Below the pieces are notes generated by a model, which saw nothing but the letters and a program-made list of their open reading frames with translations, was not told the origin of the DNA and did no database searches. 64,000 nt of DNA from Xenococcaceae cyanobacterium (GTDB lineage: Bacteria; Cyanobacteriota; Cyanobacteriia; Cyanobacteriales; JBFRWF01). This document shows positions 32,628 through 40,789 of the stretch, piece by piece. Each line of letters opens with the position of its first letter. Position 1 is the first letter of the stretch. Where the stretch lies: assembly GCA_051439465.1 (NCBI GenBank), contig JBFRWF010000106.1, positions 1,582-65,581 of the forward strand, written 5' to 3'. Position numbers and translations under genes: made by a program.

Positions 32628-33538
32628 CGCTCAACCCAAGTATGGGATCTTGCTGCCTGTTCAGACGCTTCTATGGTCAATAGAGTTTCTCTGGCCTCTT
32701 CAAAGCTACATAATCTGGTAAAATCCCCCGCTAATATAGCTTGATGTTCGGAGCGATATGTTGCATCTTTTTCTAATGTGATAGTTTCCTGAACACCATT
32801 AATGTCAATCTTATTTTGGGATAAATCAATATGTATTGTTTTGCTATCTGTATTCACGATTATTTCTCGCCTTGGCAGACGATCGAGATAGTTTATATGA
32901 AGAGAAACTAACGGACAAGACTCAGTTTCCATTAGTAGTGAATACACATCATCACTATCAATTTCTAATGGACTAAATTGCCCCCCTATGGCTGTCAATC
33001 GTCGCCAAGACCCAAACAGCCATAAAACATAATCTAACTCGTGGCTGAGGTCTCGCAGTACACCCCCCCCTTCTTGGCGATGGGCTGAATAACTTTGTCG
33101 ATAGTCTGTTTGCGATCGCCAATTTGGCAGATAAGAGCCAACATAAACATTAACTGTTATCACGCTTGAAGCATTATTTAATATTTTTTTTAACTTTTGC
33201 AATAAAGGATGAAAACGCAAATTGTAAGCAACAGCACCTTGAATCAATTTATTTTCAGGTATTTGTAGATATTGCTCGAATAAAGGTTTTTCTACTAAAA
33301 CTATGCCATTAAAATTACTTTTAATAAGAATTTGAATATCTTTATAATGCTCACTGGTACGACTGGCGATAACTACATAACTTGGCTGCCAATCAATTAA
33401 CGCCTTGGTTAGATTAGAAAAGCAGGGAGAATATTCAATGGGACGACGGCTAACTACAGCAACCTGACAGCCTAATTCTGTTAGTAGACGAGCATGGCGT
33501 TGTCCAATAGAACCATAGCCAATAATTATAGCTTTCAT
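32624..33538 (-). CDS. Gfo/Idh/MocA oxidoreductase (PtmF-like)
   Basis: GYGSIGQRH, VEKP, YNLRFHP, GGGVLRDLSHELD. Confidence 0.88.
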   Translation of the reverse strand: MKAIIIGYGSIGQRHARLLTELGCQVAVVSRRPIEYSPCFSNLTKALIDWQPSYVVIASRTSEHYKDIQILIKSNFNGIVLVEKPLFEQYLQIPENKLIQGAVAYNLRFHPLLQKLKKILNNASSVITVNVYVGSYLPNWRSQTDYRQSYSAHRQEGGGVLRDLSHELDYVLWLFGSWRRLTAIGGQFSPLEIDSDDVYSLLMETESCPLVSLHINYLDRLPRREIIVNTDSKTIHIDLSQNKIDINGVQETITLEKDATYRSEHQAILAGDFTRLCSFEEARETLLTIEASEQAARSHTWVER

Positions 33539-33540
33539 TT

Positions 33541-34584
33541 TCAAACACCTTCCCACTCTCGCTGCGCCCGCTCAAACTCATCTATACGCCCAATATCTAG
33601 CCAATATTCCCGCAATGAATAGGCAGCGGTCGGCTGATTGGCAGCAATTAGACGTTCAAACAAAGTAGGCATATCAAAGAAAGTTTTCCCAGGCAAATAG
33701 TCCAACACTTCTGGGGAGAGAGCGTAGATACCAGCATTGACGAAAAAACGCTGCACGGGTTTCTCTTCGATCGCCTCAATCCTTGTACCATCCATGCGAA
33801 CTACACCATAAGGCACTTGAAAATCATACTCGCGCACCGCCATCGTCGCCACAGCACCCTGAACTTCATGGAACTTGAGGAGACTGTCGAAGCTAGTGCG
33901 GGTGAGTATATCGCCATTGATCACGATTATTGGCGCGGTGGGTCGTTCTGGCAAGAGTGACAACGCTCCAGCAGTCCCAAGCCGCTCCTTCTCATGCAGG
34001 TATGTTAGTTGTACGCCCCAGCGATCGCCCTCCCCAAAATAGTCCTGGATCATCTCTGCCTTGTAGTTGACAGACAGGAATATCTGCTTAAAGCCCTGTT
34101 CGGCAAAGCTTTCAACGATAATTTCTAAAATTGGCTTGCCCCCTACCGTCAGCAGAGGCTTAGGGCATTCATTCGTTAACGGCTGCAACCGAGTTCCCAG
34201 CCCCCCTGCCATGAGTACGACCCAGTTGGGACGTTCTACTACACCAATTAGATCATCTAAAGTCGCCAGACCGACAACCCGATTATCCTCTCCTATTAGC
34301 GGTAAGTGATGGATAACCTTGCGGCGCATTAATGCCAGCATTTTTCTACAAGGCATGGACGCAGGAACCGCAGTGGGTTGGGGATTCATCACCTCGGAAA
34401 CACTAACCTGAAGACTTTTTCCCGCCAATATAGCACGACGGATATCCCCATCACTCAGCACACCAGCAAGGGTTTCGTCAGGGTTTAAAACCAGTGCCAA
34501 CTGAAGCCCTGATCTGTCTATTTTGGCGATCGCCTCCCTCAATACCATCTCACGACTAACAACAACTTCCTTCCAATCGTTCAT
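33541..34584 (-). CDS. CBS-domain nucleotidyltransferase (PtmE-like)
   Basis: SDGDIRR CBS pair, MAGGLGTRL, PKPLL, LGTAG, NGD, WLDIG. Confidence 0.9.
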   Translation of the reverse strand: MNDWKEVVVSREMVLREAIAKIDRSGLQLALVLNPDETLAGVLSDGDIRRAILAGKSLQVSVSEVMNPQPTAVPASMPCRKMLALMRRKVIHHLPLIGEDNRVVGLATLDDLIGVVERPNWVVLMAGGLGTRLQPLTNECPKPLLTVGGKPILEIIVESFAEQGFKQIFLSVNYKAEMIQDYFGEGDRWGVQLTYLHEKERLGTAGALSLLPERPTAPIIVINGDILTRTSFDSLLKFHEVQGAVATMAVREYDFQVPYGVVRMDGTRIEAIEEKPVQRFFVNAGIYALSPEVLDYLPGKTFFDMPTLFERLIAANQPTAAYSLREYWLDIGRIDEFERAQREWEGV

Positions 34585-34677
34585 CGACGAAAACCCTCGA
34601 TCATGAATTCTCGAAAAAGATAACCATAAGTTTAAAAATATTCAAACCACCACGAGTTGAAATAAGAGCCAGAATTC

Positions 34678-35325
34678 TCATAGTGCTAGAAACTGCCTTA
34701 ATATTTTCAGCCCCACTTCACCACTCTTTTCTGGATGAAACTGACATCCAAAAATATGATCCCGTCCAATAACTGCTGATATTGATACACCTCCATAGAT
34801 ACAATCAGCAATACGATGATTTACATCCAGTGGGTTGGCCATAAAAGAGTGAACAAAATAAGTAGACTCTCCTGGTTCTACTGTTTGCAGTATGCTATTC
34901 TTCCAGTTTGACCGATTTGAAGGTAAAACTAGAGCATTCCAACCAATATGGGGGATTTTATGGGGTTGACCAGTTTTTGAAATATTTGGCACTGGTATGA
35001 CTCGACCTAGAATTAAGCCTAATCCCCGTGTCAAGCCAAATTCTTCGCTCTCCTCTAGGAGCAATTGCATTCCCAAGCAAATACCCAGCAAAGGTGTGCC
35101 TCCCTTGGCAACTTCCTGGATCGCCTCAATAAGCTGTAATCGATTTAACTGAGCCATTGCATTGCCAAATGCCCCAACACCAGGTAGAACAACTCGTGGT
35201 GCTGCCATAATCGCAGCAGGATCATCCGTAATACTGACTTTTGCACCGCAATGCTCTAGCCCACGTTGAACACTGAGTAGATTACCTACACCGTAATCAA
35301 TAACTGTAACTTCAGGGACTTTCAT
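34678..35325 (-). CDS. Glycan-locus HisH-like glutamine amidotransferase (WbuY-like)
   Basis: IDYGVGNL, LPGVG, GICLGMQ, QFHPEKS. Confidence 0.9.
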   Translation of the reverse strand: MKVPEVTVIDYGVGNLLSVQRGLEHCGAKVSITDDPAAIMAAPRVVLPGVGAFGNAMAQLNRLQLIEAIQEVAKGGTPLLGICLGMQLLLEESEEFGLTRGLGLILGRVIPVPNISKTGQPHKIPHIGWNALVLPSNRSNWKNSILQTVEPGESTYFVHSFMANPLDVNHRIADCIYGGVSISAVIGRDHIFGCQFHPEKSGEVGLKILRQFLAL

Positions 35326-36082
35326 AATGTCTGACTTCAATCCCAGATAATTCAGCAACTTTGCGAATTTCACCGATCGTAGCACGCTGATAGTGCAAAA
35401 TATCAGCTATCGCTACAGCATCGGCTTCCCCCTGTTGCACGACCTCAATCAAGTCTTCCGGCTTACCCATACCACCACTGGCAATCACTGGAACCGAAAC
35501 TTCTTGGGTGACTGCTTTAACTAAGGAAACATCAAACCCTCTGCGGGTTCCTTCTCGGTCTACCGATGTCAGGAGAATTTCACCTGCTCCTAAAGAAACT
35601 CCTTTTTTAACCCAATCAATTACGTCAAGTCCTGTTCGTTCACGGCCATTATCAGTATAAGCTTCCCAACGCTCCGGAGCAATCTGTTTTGCTTCGATGG
35701 AAAGCACCATACATTGGCTGCCAAAACGACGGGCAATATCTGTAATTAAGTTAGGATTAGCCACTACTGCTGTATTAACAGCGACTTTATCCGCTCCACA
35801 GCGCAATAAATGGGTGGCATCATCGACTGAGCGAATCCCACCACCAACCGTTATGGGAACAAAAATATCTTGAGCTGCGCTTTCAACAATATGACTAAGG
35901 TTATTACGACCATAGAGACTAGCAACACAGTCCATGTAAATTAGCTCATCTGCTCCCTGCTGGTAATAGCGTTGAGCATATTCTCTCGGTGAACCAATGA
36001 CCCGTAAACCTTCCAGGTGAACACCTTTGATCAGATTCGGTCCTTTTATATCCAAACGGGCAATTAAGCGGATTTTTCTCAT
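35312..36082 (-). CDS. Glycan-locus HisF-like cyclase-fold subunit (WbuZ-like)
   Basis: IARLDIK, GADEL, VGGGIRS, GAGEILLTSVDREGT, IASGG. Confidence 0.9.
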   Translation of the reverse strand: MRKIRLIARLDIKGPNLIKGVHLEGLRVIGSPREYAQRYYQQGADELIYMDCVASLYGRNNLSHIVESAAQDIFVPITVGGGIRSVDDATHLLRCGADKVAVNTAVVANPNLITDIARRFGSQCMVLSIEAKQIAPERWEAYTDNGRERTGLDVIDWVKKGVSLGAGEILLTSVDREGTRRGFDVSLVKAVTQEVSVPVIASGGMGKPEDLIEVVQQGEADAVAIADILHYQRATIGEIRKVAELSGIEVRHYESP

Positions 36083-37416
36083 TAGATTACTGTAGCCTCA
36101 CTTTCATCCCAGACGGTATGGCGTAGTTTCCATTCACCATTTTCGTGATACCAAAGATGGGCAGAGCGAAATTGATCTGTTAAAAGTCGGAAATACTCTC
36201 GATCCATTATTGGTTGTTCAAAGATTTTGCTGGCTATAGGGAAATCTTTGGCAGGAATACTTAGATAACGAAAAATTTCATCAGCAAAACGTTCGGGAAA
36301 CTCATGATCGAACCGCTTTACCAGAGCTACTCCTTCATCCCGTTCAATATCACCTGAGCGAATTTCTTGGGCAGCATCATAGCTGGCTCGACCAATGCCA
36401 AACTTAATGCCGGTTGTGTAATAGTGAAAGTCGTCAATGCGATCGTCAATACTGTTGTATTTACTATATGTGCCTGGTGTTCGCTCTGGTGATGCCTGAA
36501 ATCCACCATGCTCCACTGCATAGTAGTAGCAGCTTTGAGGATGCCACTTTAGGTAGTAGCCCAAGTAATGTACCTCAACTTTTTTCTCGGCGAGTTGGTT
36601 TGGATCGGCAGGTAGGTAAGGTTGTAAATCGTTTTGATCTAAACCAAACTGTTCCTTTAGATCGCTAATAGAAACACCCCCCAGAAAAACCTGAGATTGA
36701 TCTTTGGCTGAAAAATAAGCCCAATCTCGTTGGGCTTTATCTGTATCGCTAATTGGATTACCATATTCTGCCTCATTCTCACCGTAGAAAACCAGTGGAA
36801 TGTTAAAGAGTAGTGCCATTTTAGGGGCTAATGACTTTTGCCCAAACATAAAGGCTTGAAAGGGATGGAAAAGGAGTTCAGTAGAAAGTCTAGTAAGCAG
36901 TCGATGAACTCGTCCATTAGGAGTCATCAGATAGTTGTCAAGTCCAGCATGAATCCACGATTGAAAATTTTTCCATCCCCATTCAGTGTAGATATGGGGA
37001 GCCCAAGTTACTGTTAAGGGGTGCATTCCATACTTGTTTTTTAGGATATGAGCAGCGTAAAAACTGTCTTTACCACCAGACCCCGGAACAATACAGTCAT
37101 AGCTCCCATCATTTTTCCGAAACCTGTCACAGAGAGCCTTTAATTGTTTATCTCGCTCTGACCAGTCAATACTATACTTCTTGTGTTCTGTAAAATTGCA
37201 AGCGTCACAGACCCCATTCTCGTCAAAATTAATTGTTTTCTTTTTTGTCTTTTGAGTATGTTGATACTCAACAGCAGAGTTAGGTCTTTGATTAGAAATT
37301 ACGCATTTTCGACAAAATTTAACTTCACGAGGTAAGCCATACAGAACATCAGGATTTTTCTGCTCTTTGGCAAACCGAGATAAGTCAACAGCAGAGGGAT
37401 AAGAGATAATGTCCAT
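36082..37416 (-). CDS. N-acetyl sugar amidotransferase (WbuX/PseA/PtmG-like)
   Basis: CRKC..CDAC, PP-loop SGGKDS, YGEN, SIDDRID; likely start MDIISYP at 37416. Confidence 0.9.
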   Translation of the reverse strand: MDIISYPSAVDLSRFAKEQKNPDVLYGLPREVKFCRKCVISNQRPNSAVEYQHTQKTKKKTINFDENGVCDACNFTEHKKYSIDWSERDKQLKALCDRFRKNDGSYDCIVPGSGGKDSFYAAHILKNKYGMHPLTVTWAPHIYTEWGWKNFQSWIHAGLDNYLMTPNGRVHRLLTRLSTELLFHPFQAFMFGQKSLAPKMALLFNIPLVFYGENEAEYGNPISDTDKAQRDWAYFSAKDQSQVFLGGVSISDLKEQFGLDQNDLQPYLPADPNQLAEKKVEVHYLGYYLKWHPQSCYYYAVEHGGFQASPERTPGTYSKYNSIDDRIDDFHYYTTGIKFGIGRASYDAAQEIRSGDIERDEGVALVKRFDHEFPERFADEIFRYLSIPAKDFPIASKIFEQPIMDREYFRLLTDQFRSAHLWYHENGEWKLRHTVWDESEATVI

Positions 37417-37456
37417 GTTCGTGCCTTTTGTATTACAGTTGTATTTGGTAGTTAAG

Positions 37457-37535
37457 GCGATCGCCTCTCCCAAGGGTGTTTCAGGAGAAATAACGAGATC
37501 TTGCCAATTCGCTTTAGTTATTAGTCGGCTATCCA
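37457..37535 (-). pseudogene. 5' stub of a second PtmE-like CBS nucleotidyltransferase ending at a HIP1 site
   Basis: KANWQDLVISPETPLGEAIA aligns with NDWKEVVVSREMVLREAIA of the intact gene; similarity stops at GCGATCGC 37457-37464. Confidence 0.6.
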
Positions 37536-37573
37536 CTTAAGCCGGGACAGTAATCAAAAGGGAACTTCGGATC

Positions 37574-37601
37574 GGGGAACGGGGAACGGGGAACGGGGAA
37601 C
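37574..37601. repeat. (GGGGAAC)4 heptamer tandem repeat, cyanobacterial STRR-like
   Basis: Four exact copies. Confidence 0.9.
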
Positions 37602-37611
37602 GTGACTACTA

Positions 37612-37760
37612 TAGCAGTCCTATAAAGGTTTGTGAATCAAAACGCTACTCAAAAGGGAACAGGGGACAGGGGGTAAGAGTTCTGGTCGTTTTATATTCGA
37701 TCTAAGCTTCTCTTAGCGCCAATCATGTTTTGATTGGCCACGACTCATAATGGACTGCTA
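37612..37760. mobile_element. IS630-type MITE (innermost layer)
   Basis: TAGCAGTCC...GGACTGCTA TIRs flanked by duplicated TA. Confidence 0.65.
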
Positions 37761-37829
37761 TATTCCCTATTCCCTGATCCGAAGTTCCCTACTCCAAGTG
37801 TCCCGCCTTAAGCCCCCAACGTAGCGATC

Positions 37830-38085
37830 GTCACGTTATGGATGGAGGAAAACACAAGTGTTTTCTTTCATCACACCCATTATGTGATGAAAGAAACACT
37901 TCAGGGGCGCTCCCCTTCAGTAAAGCTCTTTGAGAGAGTGATCGCTACCAATTCTTGTATATTACTCCTGTGTCCTGACAGTTAAAACCGATACGTCACT
38001 GGTGCGATCGTGCCTGGTTAAGAGCGTGGTTCTGGGGATGATGTGTATGACATTGGTGAAGGGCTTGTCCTTATCCCGTTCGAGA
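37830..38085 (+). ncRNA. Degenerate HEARO/omegaRNA-like structured RNA remnant (IS200/IS605 IscB-type)
   Basis: Ordered motifs ACGTTAT...ACAC...CTCCCCT...CTGTG...GTTAAA...ACATTGGTGAAGGG; GTTATGGAT can pair with GTGTATGAC; long hairpin at 37856-37901. Confidence 0.4.
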
Positions 38086-38104
38086 GAATCTAACTACAAA
38101 TCAA

Positions 38105-39066
38105 CCTGCGCAGTTACGTCAGACAACGGGAAACTTTAATCAAAGAGGCGGCGACTCACGTCCAGCGGATGCAGAAAGCACTGATTCAAATGAACTTACA
38201 ACTCCATAAAGTAGTCAGTGACATAACAGGTGCTACAGGAATGGCCATCATCAGGGCGATGGTGGCAGGAGAGAGAAATCCGCACAAGTTGGCCGCACTC
38301 AAAGATAGACGCATCCAGAGCACTACCTCCGAAATCGCCAAAGCCTTAACTGGAGACTATCGAGCCGAACATCTTTTTGTGCTCCAACAAGAATTGACCC
38401 TTTACGATATCTATCAACAGCAAATTACCACCACTGACCGGGAAATTGAGAAATGTCTAGCCTCCTTTGAGAGCCAAACGAAAGACTCACCGCCACCTAG
38501 AAAAGGAAAAAAGCGGAAAAAACCCCCTGGCAATGAGCCTAACTTTGACCTCCACCGCCATCTCTTTTGCATTAGTGGGGTAGATTTTACCCAGATTGAT
38601 GGACTCAATGTCCTAACTGTGCAGACTATTCTCTCAGAAGTAGGATTAGAGCCTTCTCGTTTCCCAACTGTCAAGCACTTCTGCTCTTGGCTAGGTTTAT
38701 GTCCCGGTTCGAGGATTACTGGTGGTAAGGTGAAAAGCTCTCAAACTCGCAAGGTAGTTAATCGCGCTGCCAATGCTTTTCGCCTGGCAGCTCAATCTTT
38801 AAGTCGTTCTCGCTCAGCTTTGGGAGCATTTTACCGACGAATGCGTTCTCGATTGGGAGCACCCAAAGCCATTAGCGCTACAGCGCATAAACTAGCCCGA
38901 ATGTTCTATCGCTTGTGGACCACTCGACAAGCTTATACTGATCCTGGTGCTGATTATTACCAAAAGCAATATCGACAACGAATGGTTAACAATCTCAAGA
39001 AAAAGGCACTTTCCTTGGGTTTTGAATTAGTGGCTCAACCCCAGTAACAAATGGTGTTTCTCGAGA
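38105..39066 (+). mobile_element. 5'-truncated IS110-family transposase pseudogene
   Basis: LRSYVRQRETL upstream of the ORF start, FCSWLGLCPG..ITGGK, AISATAHKLAR; N-terminal DEDD domain missing. Confidence 0.88.
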
Positions 39067-39078
39067 GTTGGTAGTCTA

Positions 39079-39720
39079 TTAGTCATTGATCCCAATTTTA
39101 ACCGCAGGATTCCCCGCCACAACCCAGCCATCTGCAACAGATTTTGTCACCACTGCACCCGCTCCAACAATCGCGTTTTGTCCAATGTGAATATCGGGAA
39201 TCACCACTGCACCCGCTCCAATAAAAGCGGATGGGGCAACTCTTACATTGCCACAAAGCGTTACCCCAGGTGCAATAAAGGCGTGGGAGCCGATCATACA
39301 ATCATGATCGATACTGGCTCTGGTATTGATAACGATATTCTCTTCTAGGGTCACTGCAGCCTGGATAACTACTCCAGCCATCACCTGACACCCCTCTCCC
39401 ATTTTGATCGCGCTGCTAACAATTGCCGATGGATGTTTAAATGACTTAAATGTAAAGCCCCGTGTTTTCATAACAGTAAATATATTTCGTCGCTTGAATG
39501 TTTTAGGATTAGCACCCAAGCCATTCACTAAAAAGGTTTTTGCAATTGATACATTATCTAAATACTCATCTCCCCCTAAAATGGGGACTCCGAACACTAG
39601 ACCCGAAATTTGAGCATTGGCATCGAGAATGCCTGTCACTCGGATACCGTTAGCAAGTAGTGTATCCAAAACAACTCGCCCGTGACCCCCAGCACCTAAA
39701 ACATAGACTGCTTCAGACAT
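39079..39720 (-). CDS. NeuD/LegH-like hexapeptide acetyltransferase
   Basis: GAGGHG, HPSA, INTRASIDHDC, GNPA. Confidence 0.9.
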   Translation of the reverse strand: MSEAVYVLGAGGHGRVVLDTLLANGIRVTGILDANAQISGLVFGVPILGGDEYLDNVSIAKTFLVNGLGANPKTFKRRNIFTVMKTRGFTFKSFKHPSAIVSSAIKMGEGCQVMAGVVIQAAVTLEENIVINTRASIDHDCMIGSHAFIAPGVTLCGNVRVAPSAFIGAGAVVIPDIHIGQNAIVGAGAVVTKSVADGWVVAGNPAVKIGIND

Positions 39721-40789
39721 CAAAGATTTCATCGAGAGCGTAATTTCTGGTTGCCATTTGCCCAAGTGTTTGCCAATATTTAAAGGGAGAAACTCCTGTT
39801 CCAGGTCGTTTACAAGTCAAGTTTTCTTCTGTAAATACCTCGCCTTTCCCGATCGCCTTTGCTGCTACCAGACTCTTACGAGCTACATCCCTGTTTTTAC
39901 ACTCCGAGACAGTGGGGCGTTTAATGCCATCTCCTAACGCCTGTTCCACCTCTCGAATTTGCCGCACCAGTTGCCGCAGTTCCTCTGGTTCCAGGGATGC
40001 CTGATGGTCCGGACCAGGGAGAGAGCGATCACAGGTAAAATGCTTCTCAATAATTTTAGCTCCCCGTGCGACGGCGGCTAGGGAAATATGAATCCCCTGG
40101 GTGTGGTCAGAGTAGCCCACGGGTAAACCAAAAGCTGACGCTAGAGTATCCATTGCGCGTAAATTCACTTCATTAAAGGGTGCAGGGTATTCGGTGGTGC
40201 AGTGTAGCAGGGTGACGCGATCGCGCAACTGTTGTTGACCCTGTTCTGAAGCAAAGGCTCGTTCAAAGTCTCCTCGTTGGGGCGTTTTGTCTTCGGGAGT
40301 TGTAAATCCAAAGGCTAAAACACCCAAGGCTGCTTCTACTTCGGCTAATGTACTCATGCCTGTAGAGAGAATAATTTGTTGTGCACAACGAGCGATCGCT
40401 AACAAAAAGGGGGCGTTGGTAATCTCCCCTGACGGAATTTTAATCGTTTCTAAGCCAAAATGCTGTGTTAGTAGGTTCAAGCTCGGAACATCAAAGGGGG
40501 TCGAGAGAAATGTAATGTCCCGTGTCTGAGCATGATGAATCAAAGCCTCGTGATCGGATACGCTCAATTCCAATTTACGGATCATTCCCAACTGACTTTC
40601 TGTTCGATCTGTGGTTTGTGTTTGATACTCAGCTTTTGGTGCATGACGACTCACCACTCGATCTGCTTGAAAAGTTTGGAATTTGATCGCATCTGCCCCC
40701 GCATCTGCTGCAATATCAATTAGTTGTTTGGCGAGATTGCGATCGCCATTATGATTCACACCTGCTTCGGCGATGATAAACGTGGGCAT
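39713..40789 (-). CDS. neuB: Nonulosonate synthase (LegI-like)
   Basis: IAEAGVNHNG, KFQTF, LHCTTEYP, GYSDHT, GPDHQASL, KRPGTG. Confidence 0.93.
   Translation of the reverse strand: MPTFIIAEAGVNHNGDRNLAKQLIDIAADAGADAIKFQTFQADRVVSRHAPKAEYQTQTTDRTESQLGMIRKLELSVSDHEALIHHAQTRDITFLSTPFDVPSLNLLTQHFGLETIKIPSGEITNAPFLLAIARCAQQIILSTGMSTLAEVEAALGVLAFGFTTPEDKTPQRGDFERAFASEQGQQQLRDRVTLLHCTTEYPAPFNEVNLRAMDTLASAFGLPVGYSDHTQGIHISLAAVARGAKIIEKHFTCDRSLPGPDHQASLEPEELRQLVRQIREVEQALGDGIKRPTVSECKNRDVARKSLVAAKAIGKGEVFTEENLTCKRPGTGVSPFKYWQTLGQMATRNYALDEIFDV

Follow-up and report, generated by a model that had tools for sequence, protein, structure and literature searches.

Mosaic O-antigen and capsule loci carry gene remnants at the borders of their modules and are shaped by both homologous and illegitimate recombination. 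A locus of comparable architecture is found in a 64,000-nucleotide stretch of DNA from a Xenococcaceae cyanobacterium (GenBank assembly GCA_051439465.1, contig JBFRWF010000106.1, positions 1,582 to 65,581 of the forward strand; the whole stretch is called the window below, and coordinates are those of the window unless another locus is named). Here a three-gene amidotransferase module, wbuX-wbuZ-wbuY, stands between neuD and ptmE of a legionaminic-acid-type cluster and is preceded by the first 22 codons of a second ptmE, the stub, which is probably a recombination scar left by an old insertion of the module. As in mosaic polysaccharide loci, there is a module between conserved pathway genes, a truncated duplicate at its border, a patchy distribution and a conflict between gene trees; what sets it apart from those is its cyanobacterial host, its legionaminic-acid-type pathway and a remnant that ends at the octamer HIP1 (GCGATCGC).

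According to PMC10607449, the WbuX/LpNASAT-type family makes acetimidoyl groups on sugars. The WbuX-family protein of the window resembles WbuX, WbpG and LpNASAT in scoring above the family cut-off, in matching PDB entry 8WEX, a solved N-acetyl sugar amidotransferase (E 1.5e-230, residues 4-437), in showing the tetracysteine motif CxxC...CxxC (CRKC...CDAC in the translation) and in having HisH- and HisF-like partners. It differs in that the substrate of its cluster is predicted only and in that the WbuZ-like partner stays below the curated cut-offs (TIGR03572, 288.1 against 299.7 bits; HisF TIGR00735, 281.8 against 294.55), its role being suggested by its location between wbuX and the HisH-like gene. 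The module would be predicted to convert the N-acetyl group of a nonulosonic acid to an acetamidino group.

A deletion in smtB was reportedly linked to HIP1 by Gupta et al. in 1993. HIP1-associated recombination or excision in Synechococcus (Robinson et al. 1997; Akiyama et al. 1998) is summarised in PMC4390886, which also covers illegitimate recombination at HIP1. The locus is like these Synechococcus cases in that a rearrangement junction lies at GCGATCGC and that two direct HIP1 copies may delimit a lost segment, but those are laboratory deletions, whereas the window holds an old insertion scar recognised by comparison, HIP1 ends two of five such scars and no excision product was seen. In the HIP1-arm transformation of Kamoku and Nielsen (2024 preprint) there is a further likeness, since about 50 nucleotides (nt) of homology ending in HIP1 also border the lineage-moving segment described here; their system is an engineered assay in PCC 7002, whereas our mapped crossover lies beside HIP1 and is known from sequences alone. 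Other sources propose a DNA-uptake hypothesis for HIP1 (PMC13756078) or report that HIP1 sites are conserved (PMC5861425). In the literature on HIP1, cyanobacterial legionaminic acid clusters and WbuX, covered by titles and abstracts and with subscription papers outside that coverage, neither the locus nor a ptmE stub is described. What it offers is a dated, multi-genome example of a sugar-modifying module that enters, moves between and possibly leaves cyanobacterial surface-glycan clusters, with the scar still legible.

A ptmE remnant in front of wbuX

The earlier note on this DNA, made from the letters of the window, had recognised a homologous 5′ stub of ptmE upstream of wbuX, and comparison with other genomes bears this out. 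Over the 44-nt segment used for all repeat comparisons (from a TGG codon to GAGGC), the window stub is identical at 34 positions to the ptmE 5′ end of Raphidiopsis brookii D9 and at 33 to that of G074, a genome of the same order, so that the stub does have homology to the start of ptmE. Moreover, stubs stand at the same site in four other loci filled with the module, three of them in genomes (G074, G515 and G568) and one in a metagenome locus (L041). The stubs of the window, G515 and G568 agree among themselves at 37-40 of the 44 positions (40 between the window and G515), and each stub matches the 5′ end of its own ptmE at 27 (window), 28 (G515), 24 (G568) and 42 (G074) positions. The reading around the shared 12-mer (see below) is MNDWKEVVVSREMVLREAIA in ptmE, whose protein continues as ...VLREAIAKID, and TKANWQDLVISPETPLGEAIA in the stub (...PLGEAIA). 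The stub was identified by alignment with the stubs of the other four loci and with the ptmE start of Raphidiopsis.

The position of the stub is as telling as its letters. In G074, G515 and G568 its ATG overlaps the neuD stop codon, as the ptmE ATG does in the empty locus of Raphidiopsis, and in L041 the neuD stop is immediately followed by ATGACT, the start of the stub. Gene order in G074 is that of the window; there, the ATG over the neuD stop opens MSKINWQDVVVSPETSLREAIA, and after GCGATCGC the sequence passes into the wbuX leader. Judged from these alignments, the 22-codon stub is the leftover of the original ptmE start.

The empty arrangement is seen in Raphidiopsis brookii D9, in which nothing separates neuD from ptmE (MAKTKWQDVVVFRETPLREAIAKID) and the latter has GAGGCGATCGCC at the E-A-I-A codons; alignment of stub and ptmE with relatives lacking wbuXYZ, a comparison proposed in the earlier note, thus finds neuD and ptmE joined directly and HIP1 at the same codons. 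The two genes are also adjacent in the distant genomes G153, G138 and G166. In a metagenome survey, 80 loci were found with the PtmE profile, and the gene immediately 5′ of ptmE is neuD in 37, wbuY in one (L041) and wbuZ in one (L044); another 27 have some other or no recognised upstream gene and 14 have no upstream sequence. Because module-free relatives have neuD directly before ptmE, the module is read as an insertion. A wbuX of at least 45% identity occurs somewhere in 12 of the 80 loci, the cases other than L041 lying elsewhere, for example after neuA or an SDR gene. The wbuX-wbuZ-wbuY set is therefore a movable unit and its placement between neuD and ptmE is derived.

Searches for further filled loci returned little. 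Among 40 genomes of the same order only short repeats were found as DNA-level relatives; a scan of genome contigs with two N-terminal peptide patterns gave one locus, genome sampling being thin; family-wide scans found WbuX in 1 of 19 and 1 of 23 genomes and PtmE in 4 of 389, with no additional filled locus; and in a plasmid collection seven records had WbuX homologues, none of them cyanobacterial.

Two side observations concern the same genes in the metagenome loci. In eight loci (L047, L048, L058, L066, L074, L078, L087 and L119) the wbuX-wbuZ-wbuY unit follows neuA or an SDR gene, in clusters that are mostly non-cyanobacterial-looking, with a GC content of 0.5 or more and few HIP1 sites. 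In L044 (3290-6040 of that locus) another amidotransferase set lies between neuD and ptmE, in the order X-Y-Z and only 31-38% identical; its flanks nest among the filled loci, as sister to G568, and no stub is recognisable. The neuD-ptmE junction has taken up two unrelated modules, the L044 set and wbuX-wbuZ-wbuY.

Age of the insertion and its proposed history

Between filled loci, synonymous differences amount to 0.3-0.7, and module genes do not stand out from flank genes in this respect. Since the loci differ to this extent, the insertion is old; the possibility that the module is younger than its flanks was rejected on the same values. All five filled loci descend from one founding event, and the stub has mostly decayed since. 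Only the window and G074 retain HIP1 at the stub end, G515 reading GAGGCAAGTAGA and G568 AAGACAATGTAG there; the stub of L041 has lost internal sequence by deletion and is no longer an open frame; and the window stub has ATA where the start codon ATG stood. In the window, furthermore, a 1.55-kb block with a flanking 8-bp repeat (GACTAATA) separates neuD from the stub and breaks the operon link between neuD and wbuX (37519-39084).

These observations are best explained by the following history, which we consider likely. The ancestor would have had a cyanobacterial legionaminic-acid-type cluster with ptmE straight after neuD, stop and start codons overlapping. Incoming DNA, carrying wbuX-wbuZ-wbuY and a complete but diverged ptmE start, would then have recombined into it, with one crossover within ptmE homology and the other join at the HIP1 octamer of the E-A-I-A codons or at most about 10 nt beyond it, so that the first 22 codons of the resident ptmE were stranded before wbuX. 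Later on, most stubs would have decayed, while repeats and flanking genes would have served as ordinary homology for further recombination. We infer that the founding join was homologous on one side and illegitimate, or based on microhomology at HIP1, on the other.

Several points weigh against this account or parts of it. Three of the five stubs (G515, G568 and L041) lack HIP1, and in G515 seven of the eight nucleotides after GAGGC match ptmE beyond HIP1 at a collinear offset (AAGTAGAT / AAATAGAT), a match noted by eye and a hint only; HIP1 letters may thus have been deleted in G515, and the original breakpoint may have lain as much as about 10 nt beyond HIP1. The agreement of the window, G515 and G568 stubs could reflect constraint instead of neutral decay. 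As for the later movement described below, the groupings compared in the topology tests were chosen after the trees had been seen, and the module may either have been lost in Raphidiopsis or gained in G074.

The module interior also differs from its surroundings in HIP1 content. Between the repeats (34537-37455 and the counterparts in L028, L034 and L041) HIP1 is absent from the window, G074 and G515 and occurs once in L041, and the adjoining neuC-neuB stretch has 5-6 sites at mostly conserved positions. A HIP1-free interior would fit a foreign origin; GC composition shows no clear step at the module.

Where the homology stops, and the proposed role of HIP1

The letters on which the earlier note had relied are as described there. 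An identical 12-mer, GGCGATCGCCTC, occurs at 34525-34536 and 37456-37467, 2931 bp (977 × 3) apart, reading GAG GCG ATC GCC (E-A-I-A) on the minus strand in both copies, and between the two lie exactly the WbuX-family, HisF/WbuZ-like and HisH-like genes plus the present ptmE 5′ end. Both HIP1 sites of the pair are exact and have the extended form GGCGATCGCC. However, HIP1 is found 34 times in the 64 kb (0.44 copies expected) and the 12-mer four times, and for this reason identity of the 12-mer is weak evidence by itself; the reality of the stub rests on homology and synteny and not on the letters alone. The window, G074, G515, L041 and the empty Raphidiopsis site all have the HIP1 of ptmE (34526-34533 in the window) in the same codons, and G568 has it with one mismatch.

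In the window and in G074, stub homology to ptmE ends with the HIP1 octamer. When the 45 nt after the junction were locally aligned with the 45 nt after the ptmE HIP1, no significant similarity was obtained in any of the five loci (p 0.98, 0.92, 0.49, 0.43 and 0.49), and anchored extension past HIP1 was positive solely through the shared HIP1 letters. A stub that ends at HIP1, as the earlier note had described it, is therefore seen in the window and G074, and not in G515, G568 and L041, whose stubs lack the octamer. By the same token, the claim that the amidotransferase module was integrated by HIP1-HIP1 recombination inside ptmE can be kept as far as insertion at the neuD-ptmE junction is concerned, but not for the mode, as HIP1 ends only two of the five stubs and the breakpoint can be placed no more closely than 0 to about 10 nt past the octamer.

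It might still be argued that HIP1 directed the founding join and possibly the gains and losses that came after it, whether as microhomology, as a Chi-like stimulator or as a site-specific target, the module being a HIP1-bounded cassette. The exact end of stub homology at GCGATCGC in two loci, with nothing significant after it, speaks for this, as does the fact that almost every ptmE copy, that of the empty site included, keeps HIP1 at identical codons; with two sites in a gene of 1044 nt, a breakpoint placed at random would be no more than about 2 nt from a HIP1 in roughly 2% of cases. PMC4390886 ties HIP1 to site-specific plasmid recombination in PCC 7002 and mentions low-level excision between cloned copies, and in bioRxiv 10.1101/2024.09.10.611283 a homologous HIP1 in a homology arm raises integration up to 7-fold, an effect its authors call Chi-like. 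On the other hand, there is one founding event, it was spotted through HIP1, and HIP1 recurs every 1.9 kb in this genome; the octamer is absent from three stubs; the later change point that could be placed statistically is not on HIP1 but 12-160 nt past it; and the module carries no recombinase gene (the interval has no dedicated recombinase, holding wbuX, wbuZ and wbuY only, and the nearby transposase is an IS110 remnant outside it). We consider a directing role of this kind unlikely. Nor do we put much weight on a further idea, rather doubtful in our estimate, that the ptmE 5′ repeat of about 50 nt, ending in HIP1, acts as a portable homology arm in which HIP1 stimulates or positions the gain and loss of a HIP1-free module; if true, this would give HIP1 a natural part in the exchange of gene modules. 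A natural HIP1 junction together with filled and empty sister loci is material for tests of HIP1 function, though the locus alone shows no such function.

Later movement of the module between lineages

An old insertion does not mean that the module has stayed with its flanks. DNA trees of wbuX, wbuZ and wbuY pair L041 with G074 each time (support 100/100, 94/96 and 100/99), whereas those of neuC, neuB, neuD and the ptmE body never do; in these, L041 goes with G515/G568, and the combined neuC and neuB tree places G074 with the module-free Raphidiopsis (100/100). In approximately unbiased (AU) tests the module genes reject the flank grouping (p 5e-87), and the flank genes that of the module (p 9e-6). 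Identity follows the same pattern, G074 and L041 being 78-95% identical in the module and 62-80% in neuB, neuD and the ptmE body, genes in which G074 and Raphidiopsis are 73-96% identical.

The limits of the exchanged segment can be approached with quartet-informative sites among G074, L041, G515 and the window. The flank pattern is shown by 104 of 180 such sites from neuC to neuD, the module pattern by 115 of 182 from the stub to 34477, and the flank pattern again by 42 of 72 thereafter. The best change point lies at 34477/34444 (log-likelihood, lnL, gain 27), and its 2-lnL interval of 34514-34370 corresponds to 12-160 nt past the ptmE HIP1. The opposite switch falls between the 3′ end of neuD and the stub, imprecisely, because the L041 stub has decayed. 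As read from these trees and sites, the module passed between the lineages of G074 and L041 through recombination in the adjoining homology.

The L041 ptmE 5′ end matches the G074/Raphidiopsis type at 35-36 of 44 positions and the G515/window/G568 type at 27-29, which hints at a possible transfer to L041 from a lineage like that of G074. The loci of G074 and Raphidiopsis are sisters, one filled and the other empty, and so the module was either precisely lost or gained after their split. Because the two repeats of G074 are identical at 42 of 44 positions, they must have recombined, and their near-identity shows gene conversion or a fresh duplication there.

G074 itself has two peculiarities within the module: wbuX and wbuZ are set apart by some 390 bp of additional sequence (L028, 11715-12107), and its WbuX stops early (…WKLRHAVY), the genome search having flagged one TGA within the match.

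Two improbable alternatives: a retained upstream frame or an excisable switch

An alternative to a decaying scar is that the stub has been retained as an upstream frame that passes ribosomes from neuD to wbuX, i.e. translational coupling. In G074, G515 and G568 the stub ATG and the neuD stop codon overlap, the 41-codon stub frame of G074 in turn shares an ATGA with the start of wbuX, and the stubs of the window, G515 and G568 resemble one another as much as the adjoining genes do (76-86% nucleotide identity) or more. Yet the stub frame ends after 22 codons in G515 and 21 in G568, well upstream of wbuX; the L041 stub is broken by its deletion and that of the window has no ATG; and the differences between stubs mostly change amino acids. 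Coupling is, in our view, improbable as the reason for the stub.

The earlier note had also suggested an excisable switch, by which the module would be deleted and possibly re-inserted between the 12-mers, alternating acetamidino and acetamido sugars. Deletion between the 12-mers would keep the frame, the sister loci of G074 and Raphidiopsis differ by exactly the module, and the G074 repeats are nearly identical; gain or loss over evolutionary time, in or beside the repeats, is thus supported by the lineage exchange and the sister loci. An active switch is not. The window repeats agree at only 27 of 44 positions, the longest exact match being the 12-mer itself, and repeats of the length and similarity for RecA-dependent deletion are present in G074 only and not in the window. 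A ptmE rebuilt by deletion in the window would have neither the native start codon nor the connection to neuD, since the stub begins with ATA and the 1.55-kb mobile block would remain; the filled state has been kept in five lineages through near-saturating synonymous divergence, and the L041 stub is already broken. In the best-matching public run (X1, 0.95 of words, possibly the source sample) Logan contigs covering 34424-35033 and 35004-37553 bridge both 12-mers in the filled state and none shows a 34525-37456 joint, although such contigs drop rare variants and so do not bear on low-level excision; all joints listed for X1 fall within the repeat block at 37606-38559, and runs X2-X4 hold mostly the repeats and the insertion sequence (IS). 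Taken together, an active switch is very improbable, and the arrangement in the window appears to be fixed.

Annotation of the locus

The features on which the above rests are collected in Table 1. All genes of the cluster region are encoded on the minus strand, in the order LegC-family aminotransferase, neuC, neuB, neuD-type gene, mobile block, stub, wbuX, wbuZ-like, wbuY-like and ptmE, followed 3′ of ptmE by oxidoreductase, cytidylyltransferase and SDR genes on the same strand. Curated NCBIfam cut-offs are passed by WbuX, NeuD, NeuB, NeuC, the LegC family and HisH. The labels given to ptmE and to the putative legionaminic acid pathway follow family names, PtmE being a name taken over from Campylobacter; the window protein is 77-83% identical in amino acids (aa) to the orthologues of G074, G515 and G568. 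The start of the wbuY-like gene (ATG 35325) was set by its homologues. In the mobile block, the IS110 remnant scores 123.3 bits with NF033542, below the cut-off of 140, and the small repeats (37527 to about 37870) have dozens of copies over the 499 contigs of the genome. A search of 33000-40000 with Rfam at the gathering threshold gave no matches.

Table 1. Coordinates of the features at the neuD-ptmE junction of the window.
Feature	Position	Strand	Basis or remark
ptmE-like gene, intact, 347 aa, two CBS domains and sugar-phosphate nucleotidyltransferase	33541..34584	-	Pfam NTP_transferase 2.9e-42, CBS 1.2e-17
Functional 5′ repeat copy in ptmE, from the TGG codon through the HIP1 12-mer	34525..34575	-	12-mer at 34525-34536
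wbuY-ptmE spacer	34585..34677	-	exceeds the spacers of the four remaining filled loci by about 80 nt; unique in the genome
HisH-like glutamine amidotransferase (wbuY-like)	34678..35325	-	TIGR01855 HisH 200.6 bits, cut-off 105.4
HisF-like cyclase subunit (wbuZ-like)	35312..36082	-	Pfam His_biosynth 4.8e-65; TIGR03572 WbuZ 288.1 bits
WbuX-family N-acetyl sugar amidotransferase, 444 aa from ATG 37416	36082..37416	-	TIGR03573 401.7 bits, cut-off 203.2
wbuX leader, stub to wbuX ATG	37417..37455	-	open, in frame with both neighbours
ptmE 5′ stub, 22 codons: (ATA, formerly ATG) TKANWQDLVISPETPLGEAIA	37456..37521	-	3′ end is the HIP1 12-mer 37456-37467
8-bp direct repeat GACTAATA, copy 1	37519..37526	-	flanks the mobile-element block
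1.55-kb mobile-element block	37527..39076	.	nested small repeats (about 37527-37870) and an IS110-family transposase gene without its 5′ part
IS110-family transposase gene, 5′-truncated	38094..39047	+	Transposase_20; NF033542 model positions 144-342 only
8-bp direct repeat GACTAATA, copy 2	39077..39084	-	includes the neuD stop codon
neuD-like sugar N-acetyltransferase	39079..39765	-	TIGR03570 215.4 bits, cut-off 160.8; synteny

Two features of the window deserve a remark of their own. Specifically, the spacer between wbuY and ptmE (34585-34677) is 93 nt long and only about 12-16 nt in G074, G515, G568 and L041, the extra sequence having GAGAATTC at either border. Secondly, a 484-aa open frame (36082-37536) runs from a GTG at 37536 in the repeat block through the stub and the leader into wbuX. 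Because the ATG of the stub is now ATA and the mobile block has been inserted before it, this frame is a spurious accident of the scar; gene callers could nevertheless give WbuX an N-terminal extension from it, whereas the homologues start at the position of ATG 37416 and begin with MNIISYP or MDIISYP.

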